The notes: generated from the letters alone by a model not told the origin. Shown: positions 21,895 to 36,405, counted from the stretch's first letter. The stretch is 64,000 bases of DNA from Escherichia coli (GCF_029227855.1 NZ_CP074356.1); one strand, 5' to 3'. Translations and numbers: made by a program.

Positions 21895-22215
21895 CTATTT
21901 TTCTATTTCTTGGTTGAATATATTCTGTAGTTCGCGATTAAAAATGGCTATTACCGTTTCTGGTGATTCGCCCCGTAATTTTCGCTCATCAATAAACTCA
22001 TCTCTTATATAAATCAACGCATCATTTATTAGCGGGTCGACATCCTCTCGATCACGTTGATGAAATGTTGGATGTAGCCGGAATCGCTCCAGTCGGTAGA
22101 CGGAACCTGTAAATAATTCAGAGCATTTATGGATCTCAAGTCTGAAGGAAAACGGATCTTCAGGTACAGGGACCTCATAATCGTAAATAGCAACCAGCTC
22201 TTTTTGCACGATCAT
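21895..22215 (-). CDS. yehK: Uncharacterised protein YehK
   Basis: 106-aa ORF, 60 bp downstream of yehI. Confidence 0.7.
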   Translation of the reverse strand: MIVQKELVAIYDYEVPVPEDPFSFRLEIHKCSELFTGSVYRLERFRLHPTFHQRDREDVDPLINDALIYIRDEFIDERKLRGESPETVIAIFNRELQNIFNQEIEK

Positions 22216-22275
22216 CGCTTTTCCCGGTGGCAGGTCGTGTTAATAACGGGCAGTCGCATCACTGCCCGCTGTGTT

Positions 22276-25200
22276 TTAATGGAAAATGACGTCGGGTGCG
22301 CTTAACGCTTCACTCAAATCAAACACATCAAGTTCGGCAAAAGTGACAGATTTATTGTCACGGTATACATGAAGAGAACGGAAGCTCATTAGCGCTTTGC
22401 TATCAACATTGTAGTGGTTAAAACCGGATGAAAACTTAAGGACCAGCCGGTACTCGCCCAGGTCATAGACAAATGCATTCTCATAGCCTGACTCCCAGCC
22501 TTTGTATCGCATTCCCATAAGTTGCCCAACGGTAGCAGATTTACCTTCCCAGCGATTCAAACTATTACTGGCTGACTCGTCAGGCGTGAGCAGTACTGTG
22601 CGCCGTGCCAATTGGCGAAAAGGCGGCATAATTTCGTAATCGGCAAAAAGCTGTGCAAACTCACTGCGCATTTCTGCTGCCATTTCTAACGGGTGGGCAA
22701 TGCCAATCAGAGCATCGGCAGGCAGGTCAATTGGCTCATCTTGCTCATTGCAGAACTCCCCCTCAGCGGCCACACGAAAGGCGTTGAGTAAACGACGCGG
22801 TTCATTTGCCGGATAAACACCCCATATTAATCGCTGAGTAACCAGACGGGTAAAGGGATGATTAACAAACAGAGAATGAAAATCTGCCAGCGACCAGCGT
22901 CGGGTGGTGCGCAGGGCAGTTTCAAGACGCGGGAGCAGGTTTTTGCTCACCTGAGTGGCATCTTTTTTTAGCCCTTTTAGTCGGGCCAGTGCCTCGGGTG
23001 CTTTCAGTTGATCGTCATCGGCGCGCAACCGGGGAACGCTTTTCTGGCGAACGTTTTGCTGATCAAAGATAACCGGGTTAAGGTTTTCATCGAAGCGAAC
23101 GGTAAATTGCCGTGGACCAAAATCAAAAATCAACGCCTGCGGATCATCAAGACCCAGTGTTGGGACTAATCTGTCCGCTAACTGTTCCTGGCTTAGCCCT
23201 CGATTTTCTGCGACCACCTGAAGAAATTCCGCCGCGTTATCACGTAAGGGGCGGGATTTCGCCCGTTGCGATATATGATGCAGCTGTATCAGTGCCATAT
23301 CATTATTCATCTGAGTAAGTATGTTCAGGCCGCTGACGGCACGGGCAGATTTGCCTTCCTGTGGCCAGGCAAGGATCTGTGTCGTCAGATCCCGTGCCGT
23401 GCTTTCGTCGCCAAAGAGACTTAACGCCAGAAATGCCCAGTTGTCTTTTGCGGGAGCACCAGCTTGTTGCCACGCGGTGAAAAGATCCCAGGCAAAAGCT
23501 GCCAGCGTTTGCGGCTGGCAGAAAGTTTTCAGTTGTTCCAGTCCGCTATAAACGTCCGCCCTGGGTAAAGCGCAGCATTTCGCCGATAATTTCCAGTGCG
23601 TCATCGGTAACAGGCTGATTATTCGTGATAAGGCGCGGCCTGGACCACATTGCCGGCTGCCAGAAATCAGGGGCTTTTGGAATGCGTGTCGGGTAAATCT
23701 CTATTGGACTCTGTTTAAGTAAATGCTCCAGGGCAGGCCATACATCTGTACGCTGCCAGCGGTTTGCCGCGGTTTGCAGCAATTCACCATGTCCCTGTTC
23801 GTAAAGTAAACGTAGGGCAAGTAATGCAGCTTCGCTATTATCGCTGGATTTGGTGAAGACAAGAGGGATAAGTGCAGTAGCCGTATGTTCCGGCCATTGT
23901 AAAATCCACTGGCGAGCCAGATCACGCTGCGCCGCGAAACGTCGCCAGACGCGGGCAACGGGCAGGGCCAGTTCTGTTGCGCCAAAATTTAAAATTAACG
24001 GAAATGTTTCTTTTGGACGATATGAAAAAGCCAACAGCAGACCTGGTAGAGCATCCAATCCGAAGATACTGAGAAAATAGTCCTCACCCGCTAACAGATG
24101 CTTTTTCTCATTGATACGTAGCCAGAAAGTCAAAGCCATCTCACGCGGCAACTGTGCCAATAAATACAGGTTCCAGATACTCTTTTCCCGACGATAGCGT
24201 GAGTAGCTGTCATTTTCCCATATGTTAATTAACACTTCTACGTGACCGCTGCGAAGCGCCTGTTCTGCTAATTGTGCTTCCGGGGAGTTCCAGCCATTCA
24301 GGATCTCTTCAACCCGCCCCTGGTAGTAATGCCACTGAACAATGAGTGAATTGCGTGCAGCATCCAGTTTTCCGGGGAGTATATAATTCAGAAACAGCCA
24401 TACATCATCTCCAAAACCCAGCTCCTGTAGTACAACTCGTCCACTTTTATGTTCCATGCGTTCCGAAAGAGATTCCGTGCTGAAATAACGGGCAGACTCA
24501 GTGGCGGCAAGCCTCTCTCGTTCGCCTGGTTGCCAGTAAACTTGCGGCGTTAATTCGAACGGTGCCAAATCAAGACGTGGAACTGTCATTTTTTTCTTAC
24601 TACGCCACGGTGGTGAAACGAGGATTTCAGGCATTTGGCTGTTATCGGTGCTATCAATAACCGTTTTAGGCGGTGCCGATAAATAACTATTCAGCACTGA
24701 CCGGGCTTGAGTACTTAACCACGGCATCACCTCTTCTGCCAGTTGTGGCTGCGATGCCATCAGCGTTTGTAACAGCGTACGCCAGTATTCATCACGTGCT
24801 TTTTGCTGTGCAGGCAGCTTTTTGTCTTCGATGATTGGATAACCAGGGCGCGTAGGTGGTTCTTTTAGCGCCAGCAGTTCTGCCAGTGCGGCAAGCGTCG
24901 CATGGGGGAAATTTTTACTGTATTTAGCTACACGTTGCAGGCTGGGTTTGTTTTTATCAGCAACTAACAGCAGGGTGCGGATGACCTGCGGATGGTTAAT
25001 TTGTACCAGCAGACTGCCGCAATCTTCTTTATGGGCATACATTGCCAGGCGTGGAACGGCTGCCAGTCCTTGTTCGCGCAAAAGGGCAGCGCAGGCCGCG
25101 TAGCCGAAGTGGTTTTCATGCGACATGTAGCTGGCTTCCCGATCGCTAAATATATCCTGGCTCCAGTAGCGTTCGAGTTTTCTCACCGCTCTGGGGTCAA

Positions 25201-25906
25201 TAGCAACAACTTTTAACCACTCCTTAGAATGAAAATGAGTCCACGGGCATTCAAGGCTTACCAACTCATTGGCGATTTCTGGTTTTTCCGGGAGGATCAG
25301 AGCAATAAAAGGGCGGCGAACTTTGGTTATTCCTGGCAGTGCGGCAATGAGTTTGTCGGCGCAACGCTGCCAGCTGCTTTCCTCTGCCAGAGAGAGATGC
25401 TTACGCAGTCGGAGATCGAATTCGTTATAGGTTTCTGATCGATAACCATAGCCATAATCCTCGTTCTGATACTGCAATGTCACTAGCAGAGGATCACTTT
25501 CATAACATCGTGTAATAAACTGGCGTGCAATCACCACCTCAGTCGCATATTCCAGTCCCTCTTGTTGGACGATTTCGTCGAGCAACTGTTGGCTATCATT
25601 TTGCGCGATACAGGCTAGCGCCGCCATTGTCCGGGCCGGAACTGAGGGTTTGTGTTCGCCAATCAAGTTGATGGCCTGCGTAATGGCCGACTGCCACTCC
25701 AGTGAAAAATTTTCATAACGCCAGACAATGTTTTTTTTCTTCTCAGCTTTTTGTAGCAATTCATCACCCAGTGTCTGGATGAGGCTTTCAGTGATAACAG
25801 GCACCGGTTCGCCCGGCCAACTGCGATGGCTGAGCGGCGTTTTGCCTTTTTTATATTTCAGTTCCACTTGGGCGTTATCCGCCAGCCACGGTAATTCCTT
25901 GTCCAT
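22276..25906 (-). pseudogene. yehI: yehI (MolR-family paralog lacking the N-terminal WGR domain) split by a frameshift near 23546-23604
   Basis: ORF-track pieces 23546-25906 and 22276-23604 are in different frames; start MDKELPWLADNAQ; both halves align with the two upstream paralogs across the break. Confidence 0.65.
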
Positions 25907-25915
25907 GCTCTTTCC

Positions 25916-25990
25916 TTATTCAAACAGGGCTTCAATATCGTTAATGAGTTCGCTGGCGGTGATGTCGTCGAGCACGGAGAACTGCGCTTC
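25916..25990. repeat. Near-identical 3' gene-end tract shared by paralogs B and A (partner at 29723-29800)
   Basis: Includes the identical 27-nt run tcgttaatgagttcgctggcggtgatg. Confidence 0.7.
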
Positions 25991-28900
25991 CTGAGTTGAA
26001 TTACTCCCCCAGCCATAGCTTTCCGCTTTGCCTTCCCATAGCCACAGCTTGCTTAAGACCTGCTCAGCGCTAAGATCGGCTGGTGACATACCCACCGCAA
26101 AACCTTCGTCGATTTCCATGATTAACGACCAGCGACCGAGAGGTTTGATCATCCATCCGATCCAGCCTCCATCCTGTGGTTCGCCCTTTATCCAGCCTTT
26201 ATTTGCCAGCCCCATGACCCGGCCGCTCGGGCATTTTCTGCCTGCCCAGCGGGTCAGTTCGCTGGCGTTGCGCTCGGCTTCTGTCAGGGCGTAACTGTTA
26301 CGTTCAAGCTGACGGAACGGTGGTAGCAGTTCGTAGTCGGCAAAAAGCTGACCAAAGGCGACAGCATCCGTCGGTGATATTTCCAGAACGTGAGGAATGC
26401 CAACAGAGATATCGCCTTCCTGCAAGGTGAAAAGATCATCGTCAGCGGTGCTGTAGCTGTTATCTTCCGCCACCCTAAAGCACGCCTGTAGCTGGTTTTC
26501 GGCGCTATAAACGCCCCAAATCAGACGGCGGGTTAAGTGACGAACCAGCGGATGCTCAACCAGGAAGAGCTGAAAGTTTTCCGGCGACCAGCGGCGGCGC
26601 AGGCACATGGCGGATTCCAGCCTTGCTACCTGCTGGGCGGCGACGGTACGCGCATCTTTTTTCAGCAATTTGTAGCGGTTAACAGCATCGTTTGCCTGTG
26701 ATTCATCATCGCTTTTATTGGGTTTAGGTAAGTCTTTCAGGCGGCTGCCGGAAACATCGCGCACAAACGGTTTTAAGGTTTCATCAAAGCTGACGGTGAA
26801 CTGCCGTGGGCCAAAATCCAGCAGCAGCGAACCGTTATCATCCAGACCGAGAGCCGGTGCTAACCGATCTTCAAGCTCCGCTACCGTCAGTTCGCGACTT
26901 TCGGCAATGTCGGCAATTTTCTCTTTCGCCCGCTCCTGTAATGCTTTGAATTTCAGTTTCTGGGCAATGCCGTTAAGCTGCATCAGGGCGATATCACTAC
27001 TGATAGCGGCGAGGATATCCAGCCCGACGGTGGCGCGTTTATGCTGGGATTCACCAGGCCAGGCGCGTATTAATGGCGTCAGTTTGCGGGCGGTGTTATC
27101 GTTACCGAGAACGCCTAACGCAGTGAACGCCCAACTCTCTTTCGACGGCGCGCCAGCGGTCTGCCAGGCGGTAAACAGATCCCAGGCAAATTCAGCCAGT
27201 GAGTCGGCGGTACAGGCATCTTTCACCTGCAATAATCCCGGATACAGCGCCTCCTCCTGATGGAAGCGGAGCATTTCACCGAGGTGCTGGAGTGCGCTAT
27301 CGGGCAGTGATTGGGCATTTGCTTTTAATACCGGGCGGGTCCAGATCGATGGCTGATAAAAGGCCGGAAGAGTGGGGATTTTTGTCGGGTGATTATCTAA
27401 GGGATCGAGCGCAAGCATAGCGTTCACCGCATTTGTTACTTCCGGCTGGTTATAACGCCGGGCGATTTCTTGCAGTAATGGTTGATGACCGTTTTCGGTA
27501 AGCATACGCAATGCAGCGCGGGCGTTATCCTGTGCTTCACCGGCTTTGCCGAGCGCCGCAGACAGCAGGCCGGTAATGGCGTGTTCCGGGTATTTCAGCA
27601 GCCAGGTGCGGGCGTCTTGTCGTAGGGTTTTGAGTTTGTTGAAGGCGCGGGCGACGGCAGGTGCCAGCTCACTCGCTGCGAAGTAATTCGTTATGGGCAA
27701 GGCTTCCTGTGGATAGCGTGCAAGTGAGTTTACTAACCCAGGTAATCCTTTGAGTCCAAAATGTAACATGGCGTATTCGGTATCGGTATGCGGAGATAGA
27801 GTAAGGGCATTCCATGCTCTTACTGCTTTCTCCAGCGGCAATGTTGTCAAAATCCCCAAATGCCAATAATGCCCGGTAGGTGAATGAAACACCTTAAATT
27901 CACTTATTAAAGTTGAATAATCTTCATTTAGCCATGCCTCAACTACCGCTTCGGGAGCTTTAATATATGTACCAGCGATCCGTCGTTGAAAACCCATCCT
28001 TGCCAACAGATTGGCAGTACTTTCTTCATGACTAACCGTGATGTGTTTTGAATACCAGATATATTTCGCCAAAAGTTGATTACTGATTTCTTCTGTCAGA
28101 TAACTGATTGGCTCAATACCTAATGGTGCTAAATCAAGCACTGGAATCGGCGATTTTTTCTTTTTCGAAAGCCATGGTGGGGAGACTACTATGGCCGGCA
28201 GTAGATCGGCGCTGGCATGGTTTGAGGGCTGTGTCAGTTGTTGCTGGCATGATTTCAGCACTGCAACTGCGGGTGTCGAAAGCCAGGGAATGACCTGTTC
28301 TGCTAGTGTCGGTTGCGAGATAAGCATCGTCATTAGCATAATGCGCCAACTATTCTCTTCTTTTTGCACTAGAAGTTCCGCCAGTGCTGCCAGTGCTGCG
28401 TGTGGGAACGCAGCGCAGGCTTTCGTCATTCGATCGTGACAGCGTTTAGTATGCCCTGCTACACGTATAAGCAGTGTTAATGCGAACGGATGATTGATAT
28501 GACGCAACACATCGGCGCAGTAGTCACTTGCGACATAGGGAGCAAATCGGGGCAGGGCCGCAACACCTTGCTCCTGTAATACGGTGGCTGACCATATCGC
28601 ACCACAATAGTAATCATCAAAAATGGCATATGGCTCGTGATATTTTTCTAATGAGGCAAGAATGTGCTCATCAGTCGCCACTATTTTTAGCCACTCCAGC
28701 GAGGGTAATTTCTTTTGCCCCAGTAGACGCTGGGCAATTTCATGTGCAATTTCTGGTTTTTCGGGCAATAACAAAGCAATTAATGGTTGCCGCCATTCTG
28801 GAATATGTGGAACTGCGGCAATAAGTTTTTGTGCACATTTTTGCCAGAGAGACTCTTCCGCCAGTGATAAATGTTTACGTAGGCGTAATTCAAAGCTGGA

Positions 28901-29710
28901 ATATTGCTGCAAATAATCAGGTGAAATGCCAGACGACAGGAAAACAATATTATTGTTGACATAATCCCATTCAATAGATATTTGTTGAAGATGTATTATT
29001 ACATCAGTAGCATATTCCAGACCGCCTTCCTGAATAATCTGATCCATAACATCCGCACGCTCTTTATATCTCGTGCAGTGCAGTTCAAGTGCCGCGAGTA
29101 CAGCCATTACCGGTGATGGTAATTTTGTCGTTTTCGGGCTGTTAATCAGATCGATCGCCTGAGCGATGAAGTTTTGCCACTCTAAAGTACAGGCGCTGAA
29201 GTCAAATGTAGCTGTTTTGTTATCCCGTTGCGACACGCCACAGGCTAAGCGACGTAACTGGGTTAATTTATCTACAGGTGTAACAGGATCTCCGGGAAAG
29301 CGGCGATGGCTTAAGGTGGTGGGTACGACTTCAAGCGGAAAAACGACAGCAATATCTTTTGCCAGCCACGGTAAAATAACGTCTGTATTTTTGTCAGCCA
29401 CGTAGAATTCTGGTGTAACTGAGGGCTGTTCCTGAATGATGGTAGAAAAGTCAGATAATTCGAGAGATTTCGTTACCGTTCGAGTATGTTTCGATGTAGC
29501 ATTCTCCGCATGTTCCACATACCCCTTTTTCGTTTTCTCCGCAATCAGCTTGAGTTCCGCTTTTTCCGCCGCCGCAGCATCTGCAAAGCTTTTTACCTGA
29601 CTTTGCCCGTTGGTGCCGACTTTGCCCCAACTGATATTCAGTTCGTTTCCCTGCTGCTCCACCGCCCAGAATTTATGTGATTTTTCGTCCTGATAAATAT
29701 AGGTTTTCAT
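25916..29710 (-). CDS. MolR-family protein, paralog B (N-terminal WGR domain, DUF4132-type C-terminal region), 1264 aa
   Basis: Start MKTYIYQDEKSHKFWAVEQQGNELNISWGKVGT (WGR motif); ends ITASELINDIEALFE; SD overlaps the stop of paralog A. Confidence 0.8.
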   Translation of the reverse strand: MKTYIYQDEKSHKFWAVEQQGNELNISWGKVGTNGQSQVKSFADAAAAEKAELKLIAEKTKKGYVEHAENATSKHTRTVTKSLELSDFSTIIQEQPSVTPEFYVADKNTDVILPWLAKDIAVVFPLEVVPTTLSHRRFPGDPVTPVDKLTQLRRLACGVSQRDNKTATFDFSACTLEWQNFIAQAIDLINSPKTTKLPSPVMAVLAALELHCTRYKERADVMDQIIQEGGLEYATDVIIHLQQISIEWDYVNNNIVFLSSGISPDYLQQYSSFELRLRKHLSLAEESLWQKCAQKLIAAVPHIPEWRQPLIALLLPEKPEIAHEIAQRLLGQKKLPSLEWLKIVATDEHILASLEKYHEPYAIFDDYYCGAIWSATVLQEQGVAALPRFAPYVASDYCADVLRHINHPFALTLLIRVAGHTKRCHDRMTKACAAFPHAALAALAELLVQKEENSWRIMLMTMLISQPTLAEQVIPWLSTPAVAVLKSCQQQLTQPSNHASADLLPAIVVSPPWLSKKKKSPIPVLDLAPLGIEPISYLTEEISNQLLAKYIWYSKHITVSHEESTANLLARMGFQRRIAGTYIKAPEAVVEAWLNEDYSTLISEFKVFHSPTGHYWHLGILTTLPLEKAVRAWNALTLSPHTDTEYAMLHFGLKGLPGLVNSLARYPQEALPITNYFAASELAPAVARAFNKLKTLRQDARTWLLKYPEHAITGLLSAALGKAGEAQDNARAALRMLTENGHQPLLQEIARRYNQPEVTNAVNAMLALDPLDNHPTKIPTLPAFYQPSIWTRPVLKANAQSLPDSALQHLGEMLRFHQEEALYPGLLQVKDACTADSLAEFAWDLFTAWQTAGAPSKESWAFTALGVLGNDNTARKLTPLIRAWPGESQHKRATVGLDILAAISSDIALMQLNGIAQKLKFKALQERAKEKIADIAESRELTVAELEDRLAPALGLDDNGSLLLDFGPRQFTVSFDETLKPFVRDVSGSRLKDLPKPNKSDDESQANDAVNRYKLLKKDARTVAAQQVARLESAMCLRRRWSPENFQLFLVEHPLVRHLTRRLIWGVYSAENQLQACFRVAEDNSYSTADDDLFTLQEGDISVGIPHVLEISPTDAVAFGQLFADYELLPPFRQLERNSYALTEAERNASELTRWAGRKCPSGRVMGLANKGWIKGEPQDGGWIGWMIKPLGRWSLIMEIDEGFAVGMSPADLSAEQVLSKLWLWEGKAESYGWGSNSTQEAQFSVLDDITASELINDIEALFE

Positions 29711-29722
29711 TGCAAAGTCCTT
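29590..29722. repeat. Near-identical 5' gene-end tract shared by paralogs B and A (partner at 33388-33520)
   Basis: Includes the identical 37-nt run ctccaccgcccagaatttatgtgatttttcgtcctga in both copies. Confidence 0.7.
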
Positions 29723-32700
29723 TTAATCAAAAAGTGATTCGATGTCGTTAATGAGTTCGCTGGCGGTGATGGCATCAAGCGCGGAGAACGTGAGCGAGGG
29801 CTGTGTACTGTAGCGTTCCCCTGGTGAAGTGATTTTTACGCTTTCAACAGGTAGCAGGTCGCTATACCCCGTTTCGCCATAAATTAATGAAAAATGTTCT
29901 GTTTCAAGTTCGAGAGCGCCATAAGGGGTAGATTTGCGCATCGCATAGACGCTGCCGCTTTCTTCCAGACGTTGCCAGCCTCGACGTTCCAGCCCGACAA
30001 TGCGCCCGGCCTGGCAAAGACGTCCTTGCCAGCGTATCAATTCATGGGTATCACGTTCATTATCAGTAAGGTGGTAATAACCACGATCGAGTTGGCGAAA
30101 GGGAGGAAGCTTTTCGTAATCAGCATAAATTTGCCCAAATGCAGTGGCGGATTCAGGAGATATTTCCAGCACATGCGGTATACCGATGTTTCCTGCTGGC
30201 AGCGTGAATAACTCATCCTGCGCATCGCTGTAAGTGCTGTCTTCTGCGACCCGGAAGCAGGCGATCAGCGTGTTTTCCTCAGTATATACCCCCCATAACA
30301 CCCGTCGGGTTAAGTGACGTACCAGCGGATGCTCCACCAGAAACAGGCGGAACTGCTCTGCCGTCCAGCGTCTGCGCTGGCACATATCCTGCTCCAGACG
30401 ATCAATCTGCTGGCTGGCAATGGCGTGCACATCTTTCTTCAATTGTTTGAAGAGGTTAACGGAGTCAGTTGCCAGTGTTTGATCATCGCTCTGATTTGGT
30501 TTGGGTAAATCTTTCAGGACTTTGCCGTTTGCATCGTGCACTACAGGTTTTAAGGTTTCGTCAAAACCAACGGTGAATTGACGTGGGCCGAAATCCAGTA
30601 TCAGCGAGCCACTGTTATCAAGCCCTAAATCTGGAGCCAGGCGGTCTTCCAGTTCAGCCATAGTCAGCCCACGGTTTTCAGCAACTATGTTGATTTTCTC
30701 GCGGGCATGTTCCTGTAATGCTTTGAATTTAATTTTTCGCGCGATGCCATTAAGCAGCATTAGCGCAACATCGCTGCCAATATCAGCTAATACATCCAGC
30801 CCGTAAACCGCGCGTTTATGCTGGGATTCACCCGGCCAGGCACGGATAAGCGGGGTTAATTTACGTGCGGTGTCGTCATTGCCTAAAATCCCAAGCGAAG
30901 TAAATGCCCAGTTTTCTTTTGCGGGTGCGCCAGCTTCTGTCCATGCCGTGTAGAGATCCCAGCCAAAGTCAGCCAGTGATTCGTGGGTGAAGGTCTCTTT
31001 GATGGTCGCCAGCCCAGCGTAGGAGGTAATGTCGCGTGGAAAGCTCAACATTGTGCCCAGGTGGCGCATAGCGTCATCTGGCAGAGGCAGGTTGTTACTT
31101 TTAAGCCGTGGTCTGCGCCATAAGGTGAACTGATAAAAGCCGGGCAGTGGGGCGATTTTAGCGGGATATTCTTCCAGCGGATCGCTATCGAACAATGTTG
31201 CCAGCGCAGCTAAAACATCAGGTTGGTTGTATCTCCGGCCGATTTCTTCAATCGTTTCTCGCTGGTTTAATTTCACTAGCAGGCGGAATGCCTGGCGGGC
31301 ATATTCCCGATTTTGGCACGGTTTGCCCAGCGCCAAAGGCAGTAGCCCGGCGGCGGCATGGCGCGGGTTATTTGCCAGCCAATTAATGGCATCCTTGTAA
31401 GCCATTTTTTTCTGTAACCGCTGCGCCATTGGTAAGGCTAGTTCACTGGCCCCAATAAAGAGGGTGAATATCCACAGTCGTTGATGATCTCGTTGCAAGC
31501 AGGTCATAAACGCAGGAATGGCCGTACTACCAAAAACTGCCAGAATCTCTTTCTCACCTGAATATCGCTCCTCAATGATTATTTGGTTGAGAAATGAAAT
31601 CGCCTGTTGTCCCGGTAAGTAACAAAGCGCAGATAGATTCCAGCTTTTGTTGGCATTGTTGTGATATTTCGCAAACTCAGCTTTTAGTGCTGGAAAATCA
31701 AAGCGCAACAAGGCATCAACAGCGCTTTGCGGTATATATTTTTTTTCATGTAAGTCATCTTCGCAATGCAGCCATTCATTAAAACCTAATTGCCAAAGGA
31801 TTTGTTGTTCTGGTGTAAAAGGAATGAAAGATGTCTCCCAGCTTTCTTTTTCAATTAGTGGCAGGTCGGTAAATAAGGTTTGCTGTGATGACTGATATTG
31901 CGCGATTTCACTGAATCTGGATATGTCAGTATGACTGATTAACTCTGTAATTCCTGGCGTGATGTCAGTGACTGCAGGGATGGGAAGCACCGGTAAATCA
32001 AATACGGGTATTACATTCGTTTTCTTATTTATTACCCACGGTGGAGCGACAAATAGCTCCGGCAACATATCCGCAGTGGCGTATTCACATTCTTCAGCGA
32101 CTAACTGAGTACGACATTCAGATAAGATGCCTGCCGCTTTAGCATTAACCCAGGGAATGACGTCAGTGACTAAATCTGGCGTGGCGGTAATCAGTTTGAC
32201 AAGCGCTTTACGCCACTGTGCATCTTCATGTATTGCCAGTAAAGTTGCATAAGCGGCAAGAGCCGCAGCGGGATGTTTTTGACAGGCTTTGCTTAAGTAT
32301 TCCAGGTGCTTTTTCTTGCCAATTACACCGAGGATCAGAATTTGAATCGCATCCGGGTGATTCGTTTTCCATAGCCATTTGACAAGATCTTCAGTCTCGC
32401 TGATGCGCTCGAAGAGATAAGTGGGATTGTCAGAATGCTCTTCCGTAAACTCAAGAAGTATCCGGCTTACACCGCGCACCCCATTATTTGCCAGCAACAT
32501 TGCCAGATAAGCGCGAAAATCATGATACAACGGTGGGAAGTCGTATTTTTCTGCTGTAGTCAGAGCGGCGTCATCGGTTACCACCAGTCTTAACCAGGTC
32601 ATCGCCGGAACGTTTTGATCTGCATAACGTAGCGCCATAGCATTGGCAATATCCGGGCGTTCAGGGAGCAGTAACGCCGCAAAAGGTTGCCGTGCTGGGG

Positions 32701-33520
32701 ATAGCGAGGGAATAGCAGCGAGAACTTTATCTACACAGCGTTGCCACTCATCTTCTGAAGCGAGTGAAAGATGATGACATAGACGTTGATGCCAGTTCGG
32801 TAGTGATTCTGCTTTGAGATCAGGGGGAATAATGGTGGTGACGTCGGCTTTTACTGGTTTATATTTGAGTTGAAGAGCGAGAAGGGCGATTTCAACGGTA
32901 GTTTCCAGACCACAGCGAATGACTAAGTCATCGACCAGTTCATCTGTAGAGTAAGAGTTCCATAAATTCCAGAGCAATGCCGCATCAGATTGTATACTTC
33001 CTGTTTGTTGATTATTCAGAATTCGCCTTTGTAACTCGGCAAACGCCAGCTGCCAGTTTTCAGGATAAGAGCGGTAATTATTGTCGGGGTCATATGCCCT
33101 GGTGTTATTCGCGATGCGCTTCCATATTTGGCCATCTTTGTACAGATAATTGATCTCTCTGGGGCGAGAGCGATGAGGAAAAGCAAATCGATTAATATCG
33201 CCAGTTACCGGAATGACTGCATCATCAGCCACCCATGGGCGTTTGTTTTTACTCTCAGGGGAGGTTTCAACTTCAGGAGTGGCTTTGGTGATGGGGGGGA
33301 TATGCACGTTTGCTAAAGCATTTTCCACATAGCCTTTTTTCGTTTTCTCTGCGATCAGCTTAAGCTCCGCTTTTGCCGCTGCCGCAGCATCCGCAAAACT
33401 TTTTACCTGGTTTTGCCCTTTGGTGCCAACTTTTCCCCAACAGATATGCAACTCGTTTCCCTGTTGCTCCACCGCCCAGAATTTATGTGATTTTTCGTCC
33501 TGAAAGATAAAGTGCCTCAT
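29723..33520 (-). CDS. molR: MolR-family protein, paralog A (N-terminal WGR domain, DUF4132-type C-terminal region), 1265 aa
   Basis: Start MRHFIFQDEKSHKFWAVEQQGNELHICWGKVGT; ends ITASELINDIESLFD; first gene after the IS200. Confidence 0.8.
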   Translation of the reverse strand: MRHFIFQDEKSHKFWAVEQQGNELHICWGKVGTKGQNQVKSFADAAAAAKAELKLIAEKTKKGYVENALANVHIPPITKATPEVETSPESKNKRPWVADDAVIPVTGDINRFAFPHRSRPREINYLYKDGQIWKRIANNTRAYDPDNNYRSYPENWQLAFAELQRRILNNQQTGSIQSDAALLWNLWNSYSTDELVDDLVIRCGLETTVEIALLALQLKYKPVKADVTTIIPPDLKAESLPNWHQRLCHHLSLASEDEWQRCVDKVLAAIPSLSPARQPFAALLLPERPDIANAMALRYADQNVPAMTWLRLVVTDDAALTTAEKYDFPPLYHDFRAYLAMLLANNGVRGVSRILLEFTEEHSDNPTYLFERISETEDLVKWLWKTNHPDAIQILILGVIGKKKHLEYLSKACQKHPAAALAAYATLLAIHEDAQWRKALVKLITATPDLVTDVIPWVNAKAAGILSECRTQLVAEECEYATADMLPELFVAPPWVINKKTNVIPVFDLPVLPIPAVTDITPGITELISHTDISRFSEIAQYQSSQQTLFTDLPLIEKESWETSFIPFTPEQQILWQLGFNEWLHCEDDLHEKKYIPQSAVDALLRFDFPALKAEFAKYHNNANKSWNLSALCYLPGQQAISFLNQIIIEERYSGEKEILAVFGSTAIPAFMTCLQRDHQRLWIFTLFIGASELALPMAQRLQKKMAYKDAINWLANNPRHAAAGLLPLALGKPCQNREYARQAFRLLVKLNQRETIEEIGRRYNQPDVLAALATLFDSDPLEEYPAKIAPLPGFYQFTLWRRPRLKSNNLPLPDDAMRHLGTMLSFPRDITSYAGLATIKETFTHESLADFGWDLYTAWTEAGAPAKENWAFTSLGILGNDDTARKLTPLIRAWPGESQHKRAVYGLDVLADIGSDVALMLLNGIARKIKFKALQEHAREKINIVAENRGLTMAELEDRLAPDLGLDNSGSLILDFGPRQFTVGFDETLKPVVHDANGKVLKDLPKPNQSDDQTLATDSVNLFKQLKKDVHAIASQQIDRLEQDMCQRRRWTAEQFRLFLVEHPLVRHLTRRVLWGVYTEENTLIACFRVAEDSTYSDAQDELFTLPAGNIGIPHVLEISPESATAFGQIYADYEKLPPFRQLDRGYYHLTDNERDTHELIRWQGRLCQAGRIVGLERRGWQRLEESGSVYAMRKSTPYGALELETEHFSLIYGETGYSDLLPVESVKITSPGERYSTQPSLTFSALDAITASELINDIESLFD

Positions 33521-33617
33521 TCTGCATCCCTGTAATTTTATCCAGTTGAATGCTGATGCTACCAGTATTTATGCGGGTTAGAGAGAGACAAAATCGCAAG
33601 AAAACAACTTTAGGAAT

Positions 33618-34326
33618 TTATAAATAAATATCCTCCGGCATAGCCGGAGGTTTTTCAAATGCGCCTATAAGGCTCTCTTACCAGCCGCGCCCTAACAGGC
33701 GCACACGATCTGACATTTGCATCCAACTTCGTTACTTACGGCCCGTAAACGGGCTGCCCGGATAGGGAATCGATAACTGCTCTCCCATTTTATCCTCTTC
33801 AAGCTGGTGCTTTATGTAATCCTGTATCTTCGCCGTGTTCTTACCCACCGTATCGACGTAATACCCTCTGCACCAGAACTCCCTGTTCCTGTATTTGAAT
33901 TTCAAATCACCAAACTGCTCGTAAAGCATCAGACTGCTTTTCCCTTTCAGATATCCCATAAAGCCTGATACGCTCATTTTGGGCGGGATCTCCACAAGCA
34001 TATGGATATGATCTGCACAGCATTCAGCTTCCAGAATCCGTACACTTTTCCACTCACACAGCTTTCTCAAAATACAGCCTATTGCTCTACGCTTCTCTCT
34101 GTAGAACACCTGTCTTCGGTATTTTGGCGCAAATACTATGTGATATTTACAGTTCCATCGGGTGTGCGCTAAGCTCTTTTCGTTCCCCATTGGGACCCCC
34201 TTTTGATTTCTTGTTTGACACTTGCAGTTGCCAGACCGCAAGGTGTTTTAACAAATCAAAAGGGGTTTTAATAACTGGCTCAAAGCTGAAAGCTTTCCGG
34301 AACCCCCAGCCTAGCTGGGGGTTTTC
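33618..34326 (-). mobile_element. IS200 insertion sequence (IS200/IS605 family); boundaries approximate
   Basis: Contains a Y1 HUH transposase gene; perfect hairpin cccccagc-cta-gctggggg at 34303-34321; 13-bp inverted repeat ccccttttgattt/aaatcaaaagggg (34197-34265) over the tnpA start; IS200 has no terminal inverted repeats, so ends were set by the expected ~0.7 kb size. Confidence 0.6.
33732..34190 (-). CDS. tnpA: IS200 transposase TnpA (Y1 HUH transposase, 152 aa)
   Basis: MGNEKSLAHTRWNCKYHIVFAPKYRR...HIHMLVEIPP (HUH motif); ORF track extends upstream to 34241 via an alternative start; start coordinate uncertain by about 1 nt. Confidence 0.85.
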   Translation of the reverse strand: MGNEKSLAHTRWNCKYHIVFAPKYRRQVFYREKRRAIGCILRKLCEWKSVRILEAECCADHIHMLVEIPPKMSVSGFMGYLKGKSSLMLYEQFGDLKFKYRNREFWCRGYYVDTVGKNTAKIQDYIKHQLEEDKMGEQLSIPYPGSPFTGRK

Positions 34327-34327
34327 T

Positions 34328-34360
34328 GTGCACAAGAAAAGGCGCTGTCGATACAGCGCC
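34328..34360 (-). terminator. metG intrinsic terminator (ggcgctgt-cgat-acagcgcc then TTTTCTT on the - strand)
   Basis: Hairpin 11 nt after the metG stop; the IS200 sits immediately beyond it. Confidence 0.6.
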
Positions 34361-34371
34361 TTGAAAGGAGA

Positions 34372-36405
34372 TTATTTCACCTGATGACCCGGTTTAGCAC
34401 CGGCATCCGGGCTTAGCAGGAAAATATCTTTCCCGCCAGGACCGGCAGCCATCACCATGCCTTCGGAGATACCGAAGCGCATTTTACGTGGTGCCAGGTT
34501 AGCCACCATAATGGTGTGACGACCAATCAGTGCCTGCGGATCCGGGTAAGCAGAACGAATGCCGGAGAAGACATTGCGTTTTTCACCGCCGAGATCCAGC
34601 GTCAGGCGCAGCAGTTTGTCGGAACCTTCAACAAACTCTGCGTTTTCAATCAACGCCACGCGCAGGTCAACTTTGGCGAAGTCGTCAAAGGTGATGGTTT
34701 CCTGAATCGGATCATCTGCCAGTGGGCCAGTTACTGGCGCGGCAGTGGCTTTCACTTCTTCTTTAGAGGCTTCCACCAGTGCTTCAACCTGCTTCATGTC
34801 GATGCGGTTATACAGCGCTTTGAACGGATTCACTTTATGGCCCAACAGCGGTTGCTGGATACCATCCCAGGTCAGTTCCGTATTAAGGAATGCTTCTGCA
34901 CGCTCGGTCAGTTTCGGCAGTACCGGCTTCAGGTAAGTCATCAGCACGCGGAACAGGTTTATGCCCATCGAGCAAATTGCCTGCAGGTCGGCATCGCGGC
35001 CTTCCTGTTTTGCGACTACCCACGGAGCCTGTTCATCGACATAACGGTTAGCAAGATCAGCCAGCGCCATGATTTCGCGGATCGCTTTACCAAATTCGCG
35101 GCTTTCCCACGCTTCACCAATCACTTCAGCGGCATCAGTGAAGGTTTTGTACAGTTGCGGGTCAGCCAGTTCGCTTGCCAGCACACCGTCAAAACGCTTG
35201 TTGATAAAGCCCGCGTTACGGGAGGCCAGGTTAACCACTTTATTCACGATATCGGCATTCACACGCTGAACGAAATCTTCCAGGTTGAGATCGATATCAT
35301 CAATGCGCGAAGAGAGTTTCGCAGTGTAGTAGTAACGCAGGCTGTCGGCGTCAAAATGATTCAGCCAGGTGCTGGCCTTAATAAAGGTACCGCGAGACTT
35401 AGACATCTTCGCGCCGTTCACCGTCACATAGCCATGAACAAACAGGTTAGTCGGCTTGCGGAAGTTGCTGCCTTCCAGCATTGCTGGCCAGAACAGGCTG
35501 TGGAAGTAAACAATATCTTTGCCGATGAAGTGATACAGCTCGGCGGTGGAATCTTTCTTCCAGTATTCATCGAAGCTGGTGGTGTCGCCGCGTTTGTCGC
35601 ACAGATTCTTGAAGGAACCCATGTAGCCAATCGGCGCATCCAGCCAGACGTAGAAATATTTGCCCGGTGCGTTCGGAATTTCAAAACCGAAGTATGGCGC
35701 ATCGCGGGAGATATCCCACTGTTGCAGGCCAGATTCAAACCACTCCTGCATTTTGTTTGCCACTTGCTCCTGCAACGCGCCGCTGCGGGTCCATGCCTGC
35801 AACATTTCGCTGAAAGAGGGCAGATCAAAGAAGAAGTGTTCAGAATCACGCATTACCGGCGTAGCACCAGAAACCACCGATTTAGGCTCGATCAGCTCAG
35901 TCGGGCTGTAGGTCGCGCCACAAACTTCACAGTTATCGCCGTATTGATCCGGGGATTTACATTTCGGGCAGGTGCCTTTTACAAAACGGTCCGGCAGGAA
36001 CATGCCTTTTTCCGGATCGTACAGCTGAGAGATAGTGCGGTTTTTAATAAAACCGTTCTCTTTCAGGCGAGAATAAATAAGTTCTGACAACTGGCGGTTC
36101 TCTTCGCTGTGCGTCGAGTGATAGTTGTCATAGCTGATGTTAAAGCCTGCGAAATCAGTCTGATGCTCCTGACTCATTTCGCCAATCATCTGCTCCGGGG
36201 TGATACCAAGCTGCTGAGCTTTCAGCATGATCGGTGTGCCGTGGGCATCGTCGGCGCAAATGAAGTTGACCTCGTGGCCGCGCATTCGCTGGTAACGGAC
36301 CCAGACATCAGCCTGGATGTGCTCCAGCATATGGCCGAGGTGGATTGAGCCGTTAGCGTACGGCAGTGCGCACGTCACCAGAATTTTCTTCGCGACTTGA
36401 GTCAT
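34372..36405 (-). CDS. metG: Methionyl-tRNA synthetase
   Basis: ORF 34372-36414; start [29 protein letters not shown] (HIGH motif) gives 677 aa; KMSKS present. Confidence 0.95.

Follow-up and report, generated by a model that had tools for sequence, protein, structure and literature searches.

The array and its encoded proteins

The stretch of Escherichia coli DNA analyzed here (GCF_029227855.1, NZ_CP074356.1; 64,000 nucleotides [nt], hereafter the window) carries a tandem array of very large genes encoding DUF4132 proteins, followed by the yehLMPQ genes. Read along the minus strand after metG (34372-36405), the upstream neighbor of the array, the gene order is IS200C, paralog A, paralog B, yehI, yehK, yehL, yehM, yehP, and yehQ. 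The open reading frame (ORF) list and the translations showed A (29723-33520, minus strand; 1,265 amino acids) and B (25916-29710, minus strand; 1,264 amino acids) to be intact, each with a WGR domain, a solenoid, and a DUF4132 domain; both ORFs lie exactly where an initial annotation, made from the sequence alone, had placed them. The N-terminal WGR region and the C-terminal ...ITASELINDIE(S/A)LF(D/E) that it had described as common to A and B were seen in both translations, and the gaps of 9 to 12 bp that it had reported were found as an A-B spacer of 12 nt (TAA-AAGGACTTTGCA-ATG) and a B-yehI spacer of 9 nt (TAA-GGAAAGAGC-ATG), with the Shine-Dalgarno sequences of B and yehI abutting the preceding stop codon. 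The ancient paralogs A, B, and yehI make up a single operon, which is already annotated in RefSeq: the A protein is identical to WP_001215556.1, and in E. coli JNEC-KY178, which is 100% identical to the window over 12.4 kb, A and B are both recorded as intact “WGR and DUF4132” proteins. The literature on ST131 names the locus the “metG/DUF4132/yeh region” (PMC9334617).

The third paralog, yehI (22276-25906, minus strand), encodes a DUF4132 protein without WGR and is a pseudogene in this strain, split into overlapping ORFs at 23546-25906 (786 amino acids) and 22276-23604 (442 amino acids). Alignment to yehI of the close relative M217, in which the gene is intact, and to that of K-12 located the lesion to a T5 run near 23552, from which 2 nt are deleted; yehI of JNEC-KY178 carries the RefSeq flag “frameshifted.” The proposal of three mutually homologous genes of 3.6 to 3.8 kb therefore failed in that the third gene is not intact; the homology is real, if old.

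Pfam searches placed WGR (PF05406) at residues 5-67 of A and 7-69 of B (both E = 1.1e-17) and DUF4132 (PF13569) at residues 999-1182 of A (E = 8.9e-48; 29975-30526, minus strand) and 988-1173 of B (E = 3e-51), whereas K-12 YehI had DUF4132 (E = 4.7e-47) and no WGR, the distribution anticipated by the initial annotation. The DUF4132 matches of all three proteins span model positions 1-3 to 179 of 179. In A this domain sits within a conserved C-terminal module (residues ~655-1190) that coincides with the conserved core of the family, as defined by 2,463 representatives (50% identity clusters, E ≤ 1e-30). AlphaFold2 (AF2) modeled residues 66-800 of A as an all-alpha solenoid (predicted local distance difference test score [pLDDT] 87.5) and residues 800-1265 (pLDDT 94.5) as a HEAT-like helical repeat followed by the alpha/beta part of DUF4132 and, at the C terminus, a small alpha+beta domain. 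Fold searches with the AF2 models returned helical-repeat matches only and no catalytic fold. On the strength of these models, A, B, and YehI are large nonenzymatic scaffolds with no apparent catalytic domain; all three have a long, rapidly evolving solenoid of alpha helices ahead of the conserved module, which is HEAT-like and then alpha/beta (DUF4132).

A sequence search of the PDB returned only relatives of the WGR domain, including the Bacteroides protein 2ra8 (E = 1e-16) and, with the family profile, PARP3 (2eoc; E = 7.5e-5). The WGR domain of PARPs contacts DNA at breaks. PARP1-3 and 2ra8 share this domain of ~65 residues with A and B, yet A and B are not otherwise PARP-like: neither Pfam nor the fold search of AF2 models detected an ADP-ribosyltransferase catalytic domain, zinc fingers and BRCT are also missing, and WGR is instead fused to the solenoid and DUF4132. 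A match to the LIC_11051 fibronectin-binding proteins (NCBIfam) was confined to WGR, scored 59 against a cutoff of 1000, and was rejected as domain sharing.

Age of the paralogs and origin of K-12 molR

A and B share 43% amino acid identity by BLASTP (47% in a MAFFT alignment), and their BLASTP identities to YehI are 27 to 39% and 35 to 44%, respectively. Alignment of their DNA is confined to the conserved C-terminal third (~70% identity) and the two gene ends, where the 5′ ~200 nt (the WGR block) are 88% and the last 67 nt 85% identical. Orthologs of A at 83 to 93% amino acid identity were found in E. coli, Escherichia fergusonii, Escherichia marmotae, and further Escherichia lineages, and three-copy arrays occur in Escherichia whittamii, Escherichia sp. 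E1V33, and MOD1-EC7003. Among 5,426 complete E. coli genomes, 1,629 (30%) have a full-length A; the remainder match its WGR end of ~200 nt only. Because A orthologs and three-copy arrays are present in other Escherichia, the three-copy operon is, judging by these sequences, the ancestral state of the genus and the K-12 arrangement a derived deletion. A third copy is thus neither the rule in E. coli nor particular to this strain.

K-12 (examined in J53) has a single molR-like pseudogene and an intact yehI between metG and yehK, in agreement with the initial annotation. B is 92.1% identical to K-12 molR over 3,796 nt and the yehI of the window 94.7% identical to K-12 yehI over 3,633 nt, so that both exceed 90% nucleotide identity in a syntenic position, as expected of orthologs. 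A, by contrast, has no counterpart in K-12 past its first ~200 nt, and the extra full-length WGR gene claimed for the window relative to K-12 is real. The region upstream of K-12 molR is nonetheless of A type (1 mismatch in ~95 nt), as are its first ~56 codons (MRHFIY start); the gene becomes B-type from about nt 165, within the WGR block. The same combination of A-type start and B-type linker was present in 6 of 6 sampled two-copy genomes. K-12 “molR” is, on this comparison, a recombinant of the A promoter, A start, and B body with its crossover inside the WGR block. K-12 resembles the window in the metG-yehK locus, the B body, yehI, and the upstream SOS-like box region; it differs in that its molR is a hybrid, frameshifted and with an internal stop, whereas in the window A and B are separate and intact and yehI is frameshifted.

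Homologous recombination between the near-identical WGR-coding 5′ blocks of A and B accounts for the loss of the A body from K-12 and from ~70% of E. coli. The two homology arms, both delimited by Pfam, lie on the minus strand at 33320-33508 in A (88% nucleotide identity to the B block) and at 29504-29692 in B. Across the block, A and B differ at 17 to 35 of 177 nt, a range overlapping that within each paralog (2 to 30), and polymorphisms are shared mosaically between the two; this pattern indicates gene conversion, which would keep up the recombination handle. In the two-copy genome of E. coli O166:H15 JNE21-009 (L081), a window-like A WGR is joined to the linker of a different B class (...EKVKKGYVEELSS). 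Since this junction differs, the comparison implies that A was deleted at least twice, independently, through recombination in the WGR block.

Of the two origins that the initial annotation had left open for the second WGR gene, tandem duplication or retention of an ancestral copy, retention is thus favored. A recent, strain-specific duplication might be suggested by the adjacency and shared orientation of A and B and by their near-identical WGR 5′ ends (88%) and C-terminal tails, but the mosaic pattern makes gene conversion the better explanation of these alike ends. The low identity in protein (43%) and in DNA, where most of the length shows no detectable similarity, excludes such an event, and the A census, the A orthologs in several Escherichia species, and the outgroup three-copy arrays led us to reject it as very improbable. 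A gain of A by horizontal transfer into a subset of E. coli, rather than its loss from the majority, has somewhat more in its favor: the A alleles of E. coli differ by up to 17% in amino acid sequence, with a synonymous divergence (dS) of up to 0.36, which suggests that alleles were imported by recombination from other Escherichia, and the variable regions are AT-rich. We nevertheless regard it as unlikely, given that outgroup species have three-copy arrays, that the spacer to metG measures 141 bp both in K-12 and in A-bearing O157:H7, and that in two-copy genomes B is joined to the promoter, SOS box, and first codons of A, which is the scar of a deletion and not an empty site.

Two sets of records outside the usual chromosomal setting also came to light. 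A contig of 2.8 kb (L006) in a metagenome-assembled genome (MAG) labeled Collinsella sp. encodes a protein 96% identical to A and is almost certainly E. coli sequence misbinned into an Actinobacteria MAG. B-like WGR/DUF4132 genes, two copies per record, with ~62% amino acid identity to the C-terminal module of A, are present on large plasmid records of E. coli isolated from blood (H98-H100 and H102; 181 to 393 kb); these copies may be captured chromosomal segments or mislabeled replicons.

YehLMPQ partners, an SOS-like box, and decay within E. coli

The neighborhood of DUF4132 genes was scanned in 63 loci, with one genome per species. In 35 of these, yehL lies no more than 900 nt downstream of a DUF4132 gene on the same strand, and yehM, yehP, and yehQ follow it in the same order wherever the sequence permits. 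The yehL-linked loci belong to Gamma- and Betaproteobacteria, Myxococcota, and Actinobacteria, with Erwinia, Iodobacter, Massilia, Duganella, Cupriavidus, Xanthomonadales, Myxococcota, and Mycobacterium among the genera and groups represented. The run of DUF4132 genes before yehL comprises one gene in 21 loci, two in nine, three in two, and four, five, and seven in one locus each, the last being a Massilia (L011) in which seven WGR/DUF4132 paralogs immediately precede a single yehL-yehM. Massilia spp. carry very long tandem arrays, with 5 to at least 8 such paralogs (L011, L016, L021, L027, L028, L030, and L032). The window has the same DUF4132-yehL-yehM-yehP-yehQ order on one strand.

YehL is the name-giving member of a subfamily of MoxR AAA+ ATPases (PMC3893208), and its nearest solved relatives by sequence are the AAA modules of Midasin. 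YehP is a VWA protein, YehM a DUF5682 protein (Pfam on the K-12 protein), and YehQ has a SWIM zinc finger. The pairing of a MoxR AAA+ ATPase with a VWA protein recurs in the remodeling pairs RavA-ViaA, CbbQ-CbbO, and NorQ-NorD, which, with eukaryotic Midasin/Rea1, are among the closest known systems; the characterized MoxR systems are without the DUF5682, SWIM, and DUF4132 partners of the YehL cluster. By analogy, YehL and YehP would together act on a client held at the VWA metal ion-dependent adhesion site (MIDAS), either remodeling or extracting it. Our literature searches on DUF5682, on yehM, yehP, and yehQ, on WGR together with MoxR and SWIM, and on WGR in phage defense found no functional study.

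Several of these partners are broken in the strain studied here. On the minus strand, yehL (20242-21319) is a pseudogene with an 11-nt deletion, seen by alignment, and yehM (18000-20231) is a pseudogene with a stop at codon 224 and a 48-nt deletion; RefSeq flags them in JNEC-KY178 as “frameshifted” and “internal stop,” respectively, and M217 has the same lesions in both. By contrast, yehP (16871-18007, minus strand) is intact according to the RefSeq annotation of the identical strain, as is yehQ (14874-16874, minus strand), which is a pseudogene in K-12. The YehL-type cluster of the window therefore does not have a full set of intact partners, and with yehI, yehL, and yehM all inactivated, A and B are probably orphaned remnants here, unless they also act alone.

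Upstream of A, 7 nt before its ATG, lies a 20-mer resembling an SOS (LexA) box (AACTGGATAAAATTACAGGG; 33528-33547, minus strand). An exact copy stands upstream of K-12 molR, and the first gene in each of the 17 E. coli genomes sampled is preceded by one as well; E. whittamii and Escherichia sp. E1V33 have near-identical versions. By sequence, A thus has a putative SOS box in its promoter region, as would be expected of a LexA-regulon member; a scan for a sigma-70 consensus promoter upstream of A gave no match. A review (PMC6590174) counts K-12 molR among the genes under LexA control for which an SOS box is known. A parallel to this reported control is found in Deinococcus, where the WGR gene DR2173 and the DUF4132 genes DRA0165-DRA0166 are induced as part of the DdrO DNA damage regulon; the same domain families fall under a DNA damage regulon (DdrO/IrrE), although the two domains are there on separate proteins under another regulator, and the likeness is at the level of domain family. 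Between the metG terminator and the A promoter region the window also carries IS200C (~33625-34333, minus strand; tnpA at 33732-34190), ~100 nt upstream of the A ATG, with the STnc490/art200 small RNA at 34200-34323 and a strong terminal hairpin at 33632-33650. K-12, O157, and most of the genomes sampled lack this insertion.

Variation within E. coli is concentrated in the solenoids. Sliding-window estimates of nonsynonymous and synonymous polymorphism (pN and pS) identified an AT-rich hypervariable N-terminal and middle solenoid in B (amino acids ~70-700; 27611-29503, minus strand), where allele classes differ with pN of 0.25 to 0.43 and a saturated pS of 0.6 to 0.9, compared with pN of 0.01 to 0.04 in the WGR and C-terminal third of B. 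The hypervariable segment of A (amino acids ~480-750; 31271-32083, minus strand) is milder (pN 0.09 to 0.18, pS 0.4 to 0.5), and pN is ~0.01 to 0.08, mostly <0.06, in the rest of A. No window of the scan had pN/pS >1. The B allele class of our strain is the most common (3,386 of 5,426 genomes). GC content is 0.44 at 28000-29500 and 31500-32500, versus 0.52 to 0.54 in the conserved C-terminal parts of B and A. The yehL/yehM region has been reported as H-NS-bound and silenced (PMC3686432).

Ratios of nonsynonymous to synonymous divergence (dN/dS) were 0.16 to 0.26 for A, 0.25 to 0.29 for B, and 0.14 to 0.27 for yehI, compared with 0.02 to 0.07 for yehL (one near-identical pair at 0.32) and ≤0.04 for metG, and the array ORFs stay open despite dS of up to 0.77. 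Independent lesions were nevertheless scattered over 9 of the 17 sampled genomes, each with at least one: the strain of the window (yehI, yehL, and yehM), M217 (yehL and yehM), strain 7/2 (a deletion fusing yehI to yehM, although its A is 100% identical to that of the window), O157:H7 (A, B, and yehM), SC455 (B and also yehK), AR_0058 (IS1 in B and also yehK), K-12 (the hybrid gene and yehQ), OkiPb01709 (yehI and yehM), and A31 (yehI and yehP). The other eight had no large-gene lesion within the stretch inspected, several stretches leaving out part of yehM, yehP, or yehQ; among the eight, AVS0747 has a frameshift in yehK, and those that seem fully intact are STEFF_1 and JNE21-009, for which the whole cluster was seen, and TUM10828, E8, and NCTC9088, for which yehQ was partly covered. 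Since dN/dS is well below 1 and the lesions are scattered, the system is, from these comparisons, under purifying selection where kept, yet often and independently lost. The dS of metG between E. coli strains (0.08 to 0.25, with one closely related pair at 0.03) and that of apbC next door (0.05 to 0.15) were also recorded; the raised metG values may stem from diversity at linked sites or from recombination that extends out of the hypervariable DUF4132 genes.

The spacers on either side of yehK have features of their own. The gene itself (21895-22215, minus strand; 106 amino acids) lies between yehI and the yehL operon and was seen in Escherichia only among the loci fetched. The 60-nt yehI-yehK spacer (22216-22275, minus strand) holds a GC-rich hairpin (GGGCAGTGATGCGACTGCCC) with no clear T-run, possibly a weak terminator or a site of RNA processing. 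In the yehK-yehL spacer lies a single copy of a type I toxin-antitoxin pair (21431-21506, minus strand; 21752-21841, plus strand), with an OrzO-P antitoxin RNA (Rfam, 101 bits) and a ZorO-like ORF of 29 amino acids (MDTLTQKLTVLIAVLELLVALLRLIDLLK). The OrzO-P/ZorO-type locus is known in O157:H7 (z3289/z3290) and absent from MG1655 (PMC2887945).

A candidate SOS-linked DUF4132/YehLMPQ system

As a genome feature, the array is ordinary, a known and annotated presence/absence polymorphism, and the remaining interest lies in the SOS-linked DUF4132/YehLMPQ system. The reading we favor, with a probability of roughly 60%, is that A, B, and yehI form an ancestral operon of SOS-induced scaffolds that serve the YehLMPQ machine as adaptors, sensors, or clients, partly lost in K-12 and orphaned in the strain studied here. 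DNA damage would induce expression of A-B-yehI, and the DUF4132 paralogs would act as interchangeable adaptor or sensor subunits, or as clients, of a MoxR AAA+/VWA machine in which YehM and YehQ are partners of a Midasin-like YehL/YehP motor. The conserved C-terminal module might dock to this machine, the WGR domain might contact nucleic acid, and the variable solenoid might set target specificity.

Several points weigh against this reading. The proposed coupling between DUF4132 proteins and YehLMPQ is read from gene neighborhood, and 10 evaluable loci have a solitary DUF4132 gene with no yehL within 10 kb. A and B have stayed intact although yehL and yehM are long dead, in M217 as well, and so could act without YehLMPQ. 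Because it falls in a homopolymer, the yehI deletion of 2 nt could be a sequencing error. With regard to the SOS link, one half-site of the box is CTGG and not CTGT (1 mismatch to the CTGT-N8-ACAG core, of which no exact copy occurs anywhere in the window), the regions upstream of the arrays at 24 non-Escherichia loci held SOS-like boxes at no more than background level, and IS200C might alter the expression of A. We take AACTGGATAAAATTACAGGG to be the K-12 molR SOS box that Fernandez de Henestrosa et al. (2000) published; the review cited above (PMC6590174) only lists molR.

Among other accounts of function, the one we hold possible, if tentative, is that tandem WGR-DUF4132 proteins and YehLMPQ form a conflict system against phages or mobile elements, with the paralogs as diversified sensors and the MoxR/VWA/SWIM proteins as the common effector or engine. 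The cluster resembles known antiphage defense systems in its patchy distribution, hypervariable segments, and paralog arrays: conserved ends surround hypervariable middles, deeply diverged allele classes coexist in one species, 1 to at least 7 paralogs lie upstream of one constant module across taxa, and presence/absence and independent pseudogenization are frequent. The AT-rich variable halves and the H-NS silencing of yehL/yehM point the same way, as does the adjoining type I toxin-antitoxin pair, and SOS control would suit a system that senses DNA injury or the induction of prophages. Against it, a PADLOC-DB v2 scan (E ≤ 0.01) matched none of the eight proteins (A, B, YehI, YehK, YehL, YehM, YehP, and YehQ), and they showed neither a nuclease, TIR, or protease domain nor any other effector domain; homologs were absent from 50,697 phage records and rare on plasmids, the chromosomal position is fixed rather than within a mobile defense island, and pN/pS never exceeded 1 in any window.

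That the array genes are instead functionless and decaying, their intactness here being fortuitous, is doubtful, even though 9 of the 17 genomes sampled bear independent frameshifts, stops, IS insertions, or deletions, this lineage has inactivated partner genes (yehL and yehM), and dN/dS is 5 to 10 times that of neighboring genes. Values of 0.16 to 0.29 still denote clear purifying selection, ORFs of 1,265 codons have remained open across alleles with dS of up to 0.77, the large genes are free of lesions in 8 of the 17 genomes over the stretches examined, and more than 2,400 diverged representatives of the family keep a strongly conserved core. A role in transcriptional regulation of molybdate metabolism, finally, has only the legacy name “MolR” to recommend it, which some sources still use. 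Pfam, NCBIfam, and fold searches turned up neither a DNA-binding regulator domain nor a molybdate-binding one, and the neighbors are MoxR, VWA, and SWIM genes rather than mod or moa; we give this role virtually no credence.

Returning to the scaffold operon and its YehLMPQ machine, the locus explains the long-puzzling K-12 “molR” pseudogene as the product of a recombinant deletion, on the sequence evidence above, and K-12, with this hybrid pseudogene and a yehQ pseudogene, is for that reason a poor model for the DUF4132/YehLMPQ system. A bolder proposal, which we put forward only as speculation, is that the cluster is a widespread DNA damage-inducible surveillance or immunity system, in which a Midasin-like MoxR/VWA motor would be guided by interchangeable, recombination-shuffled solenoid sensors and the WGR block would double as nucleic acid sensor and cassette-swap handle. 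At either level, a hypothesis that can be tested is at hand both for a gene that ranks among the last uncharacterized ones in the E. coli SOS regulon and for the uncharacterized YehL subfamily of MoxR ATPases.

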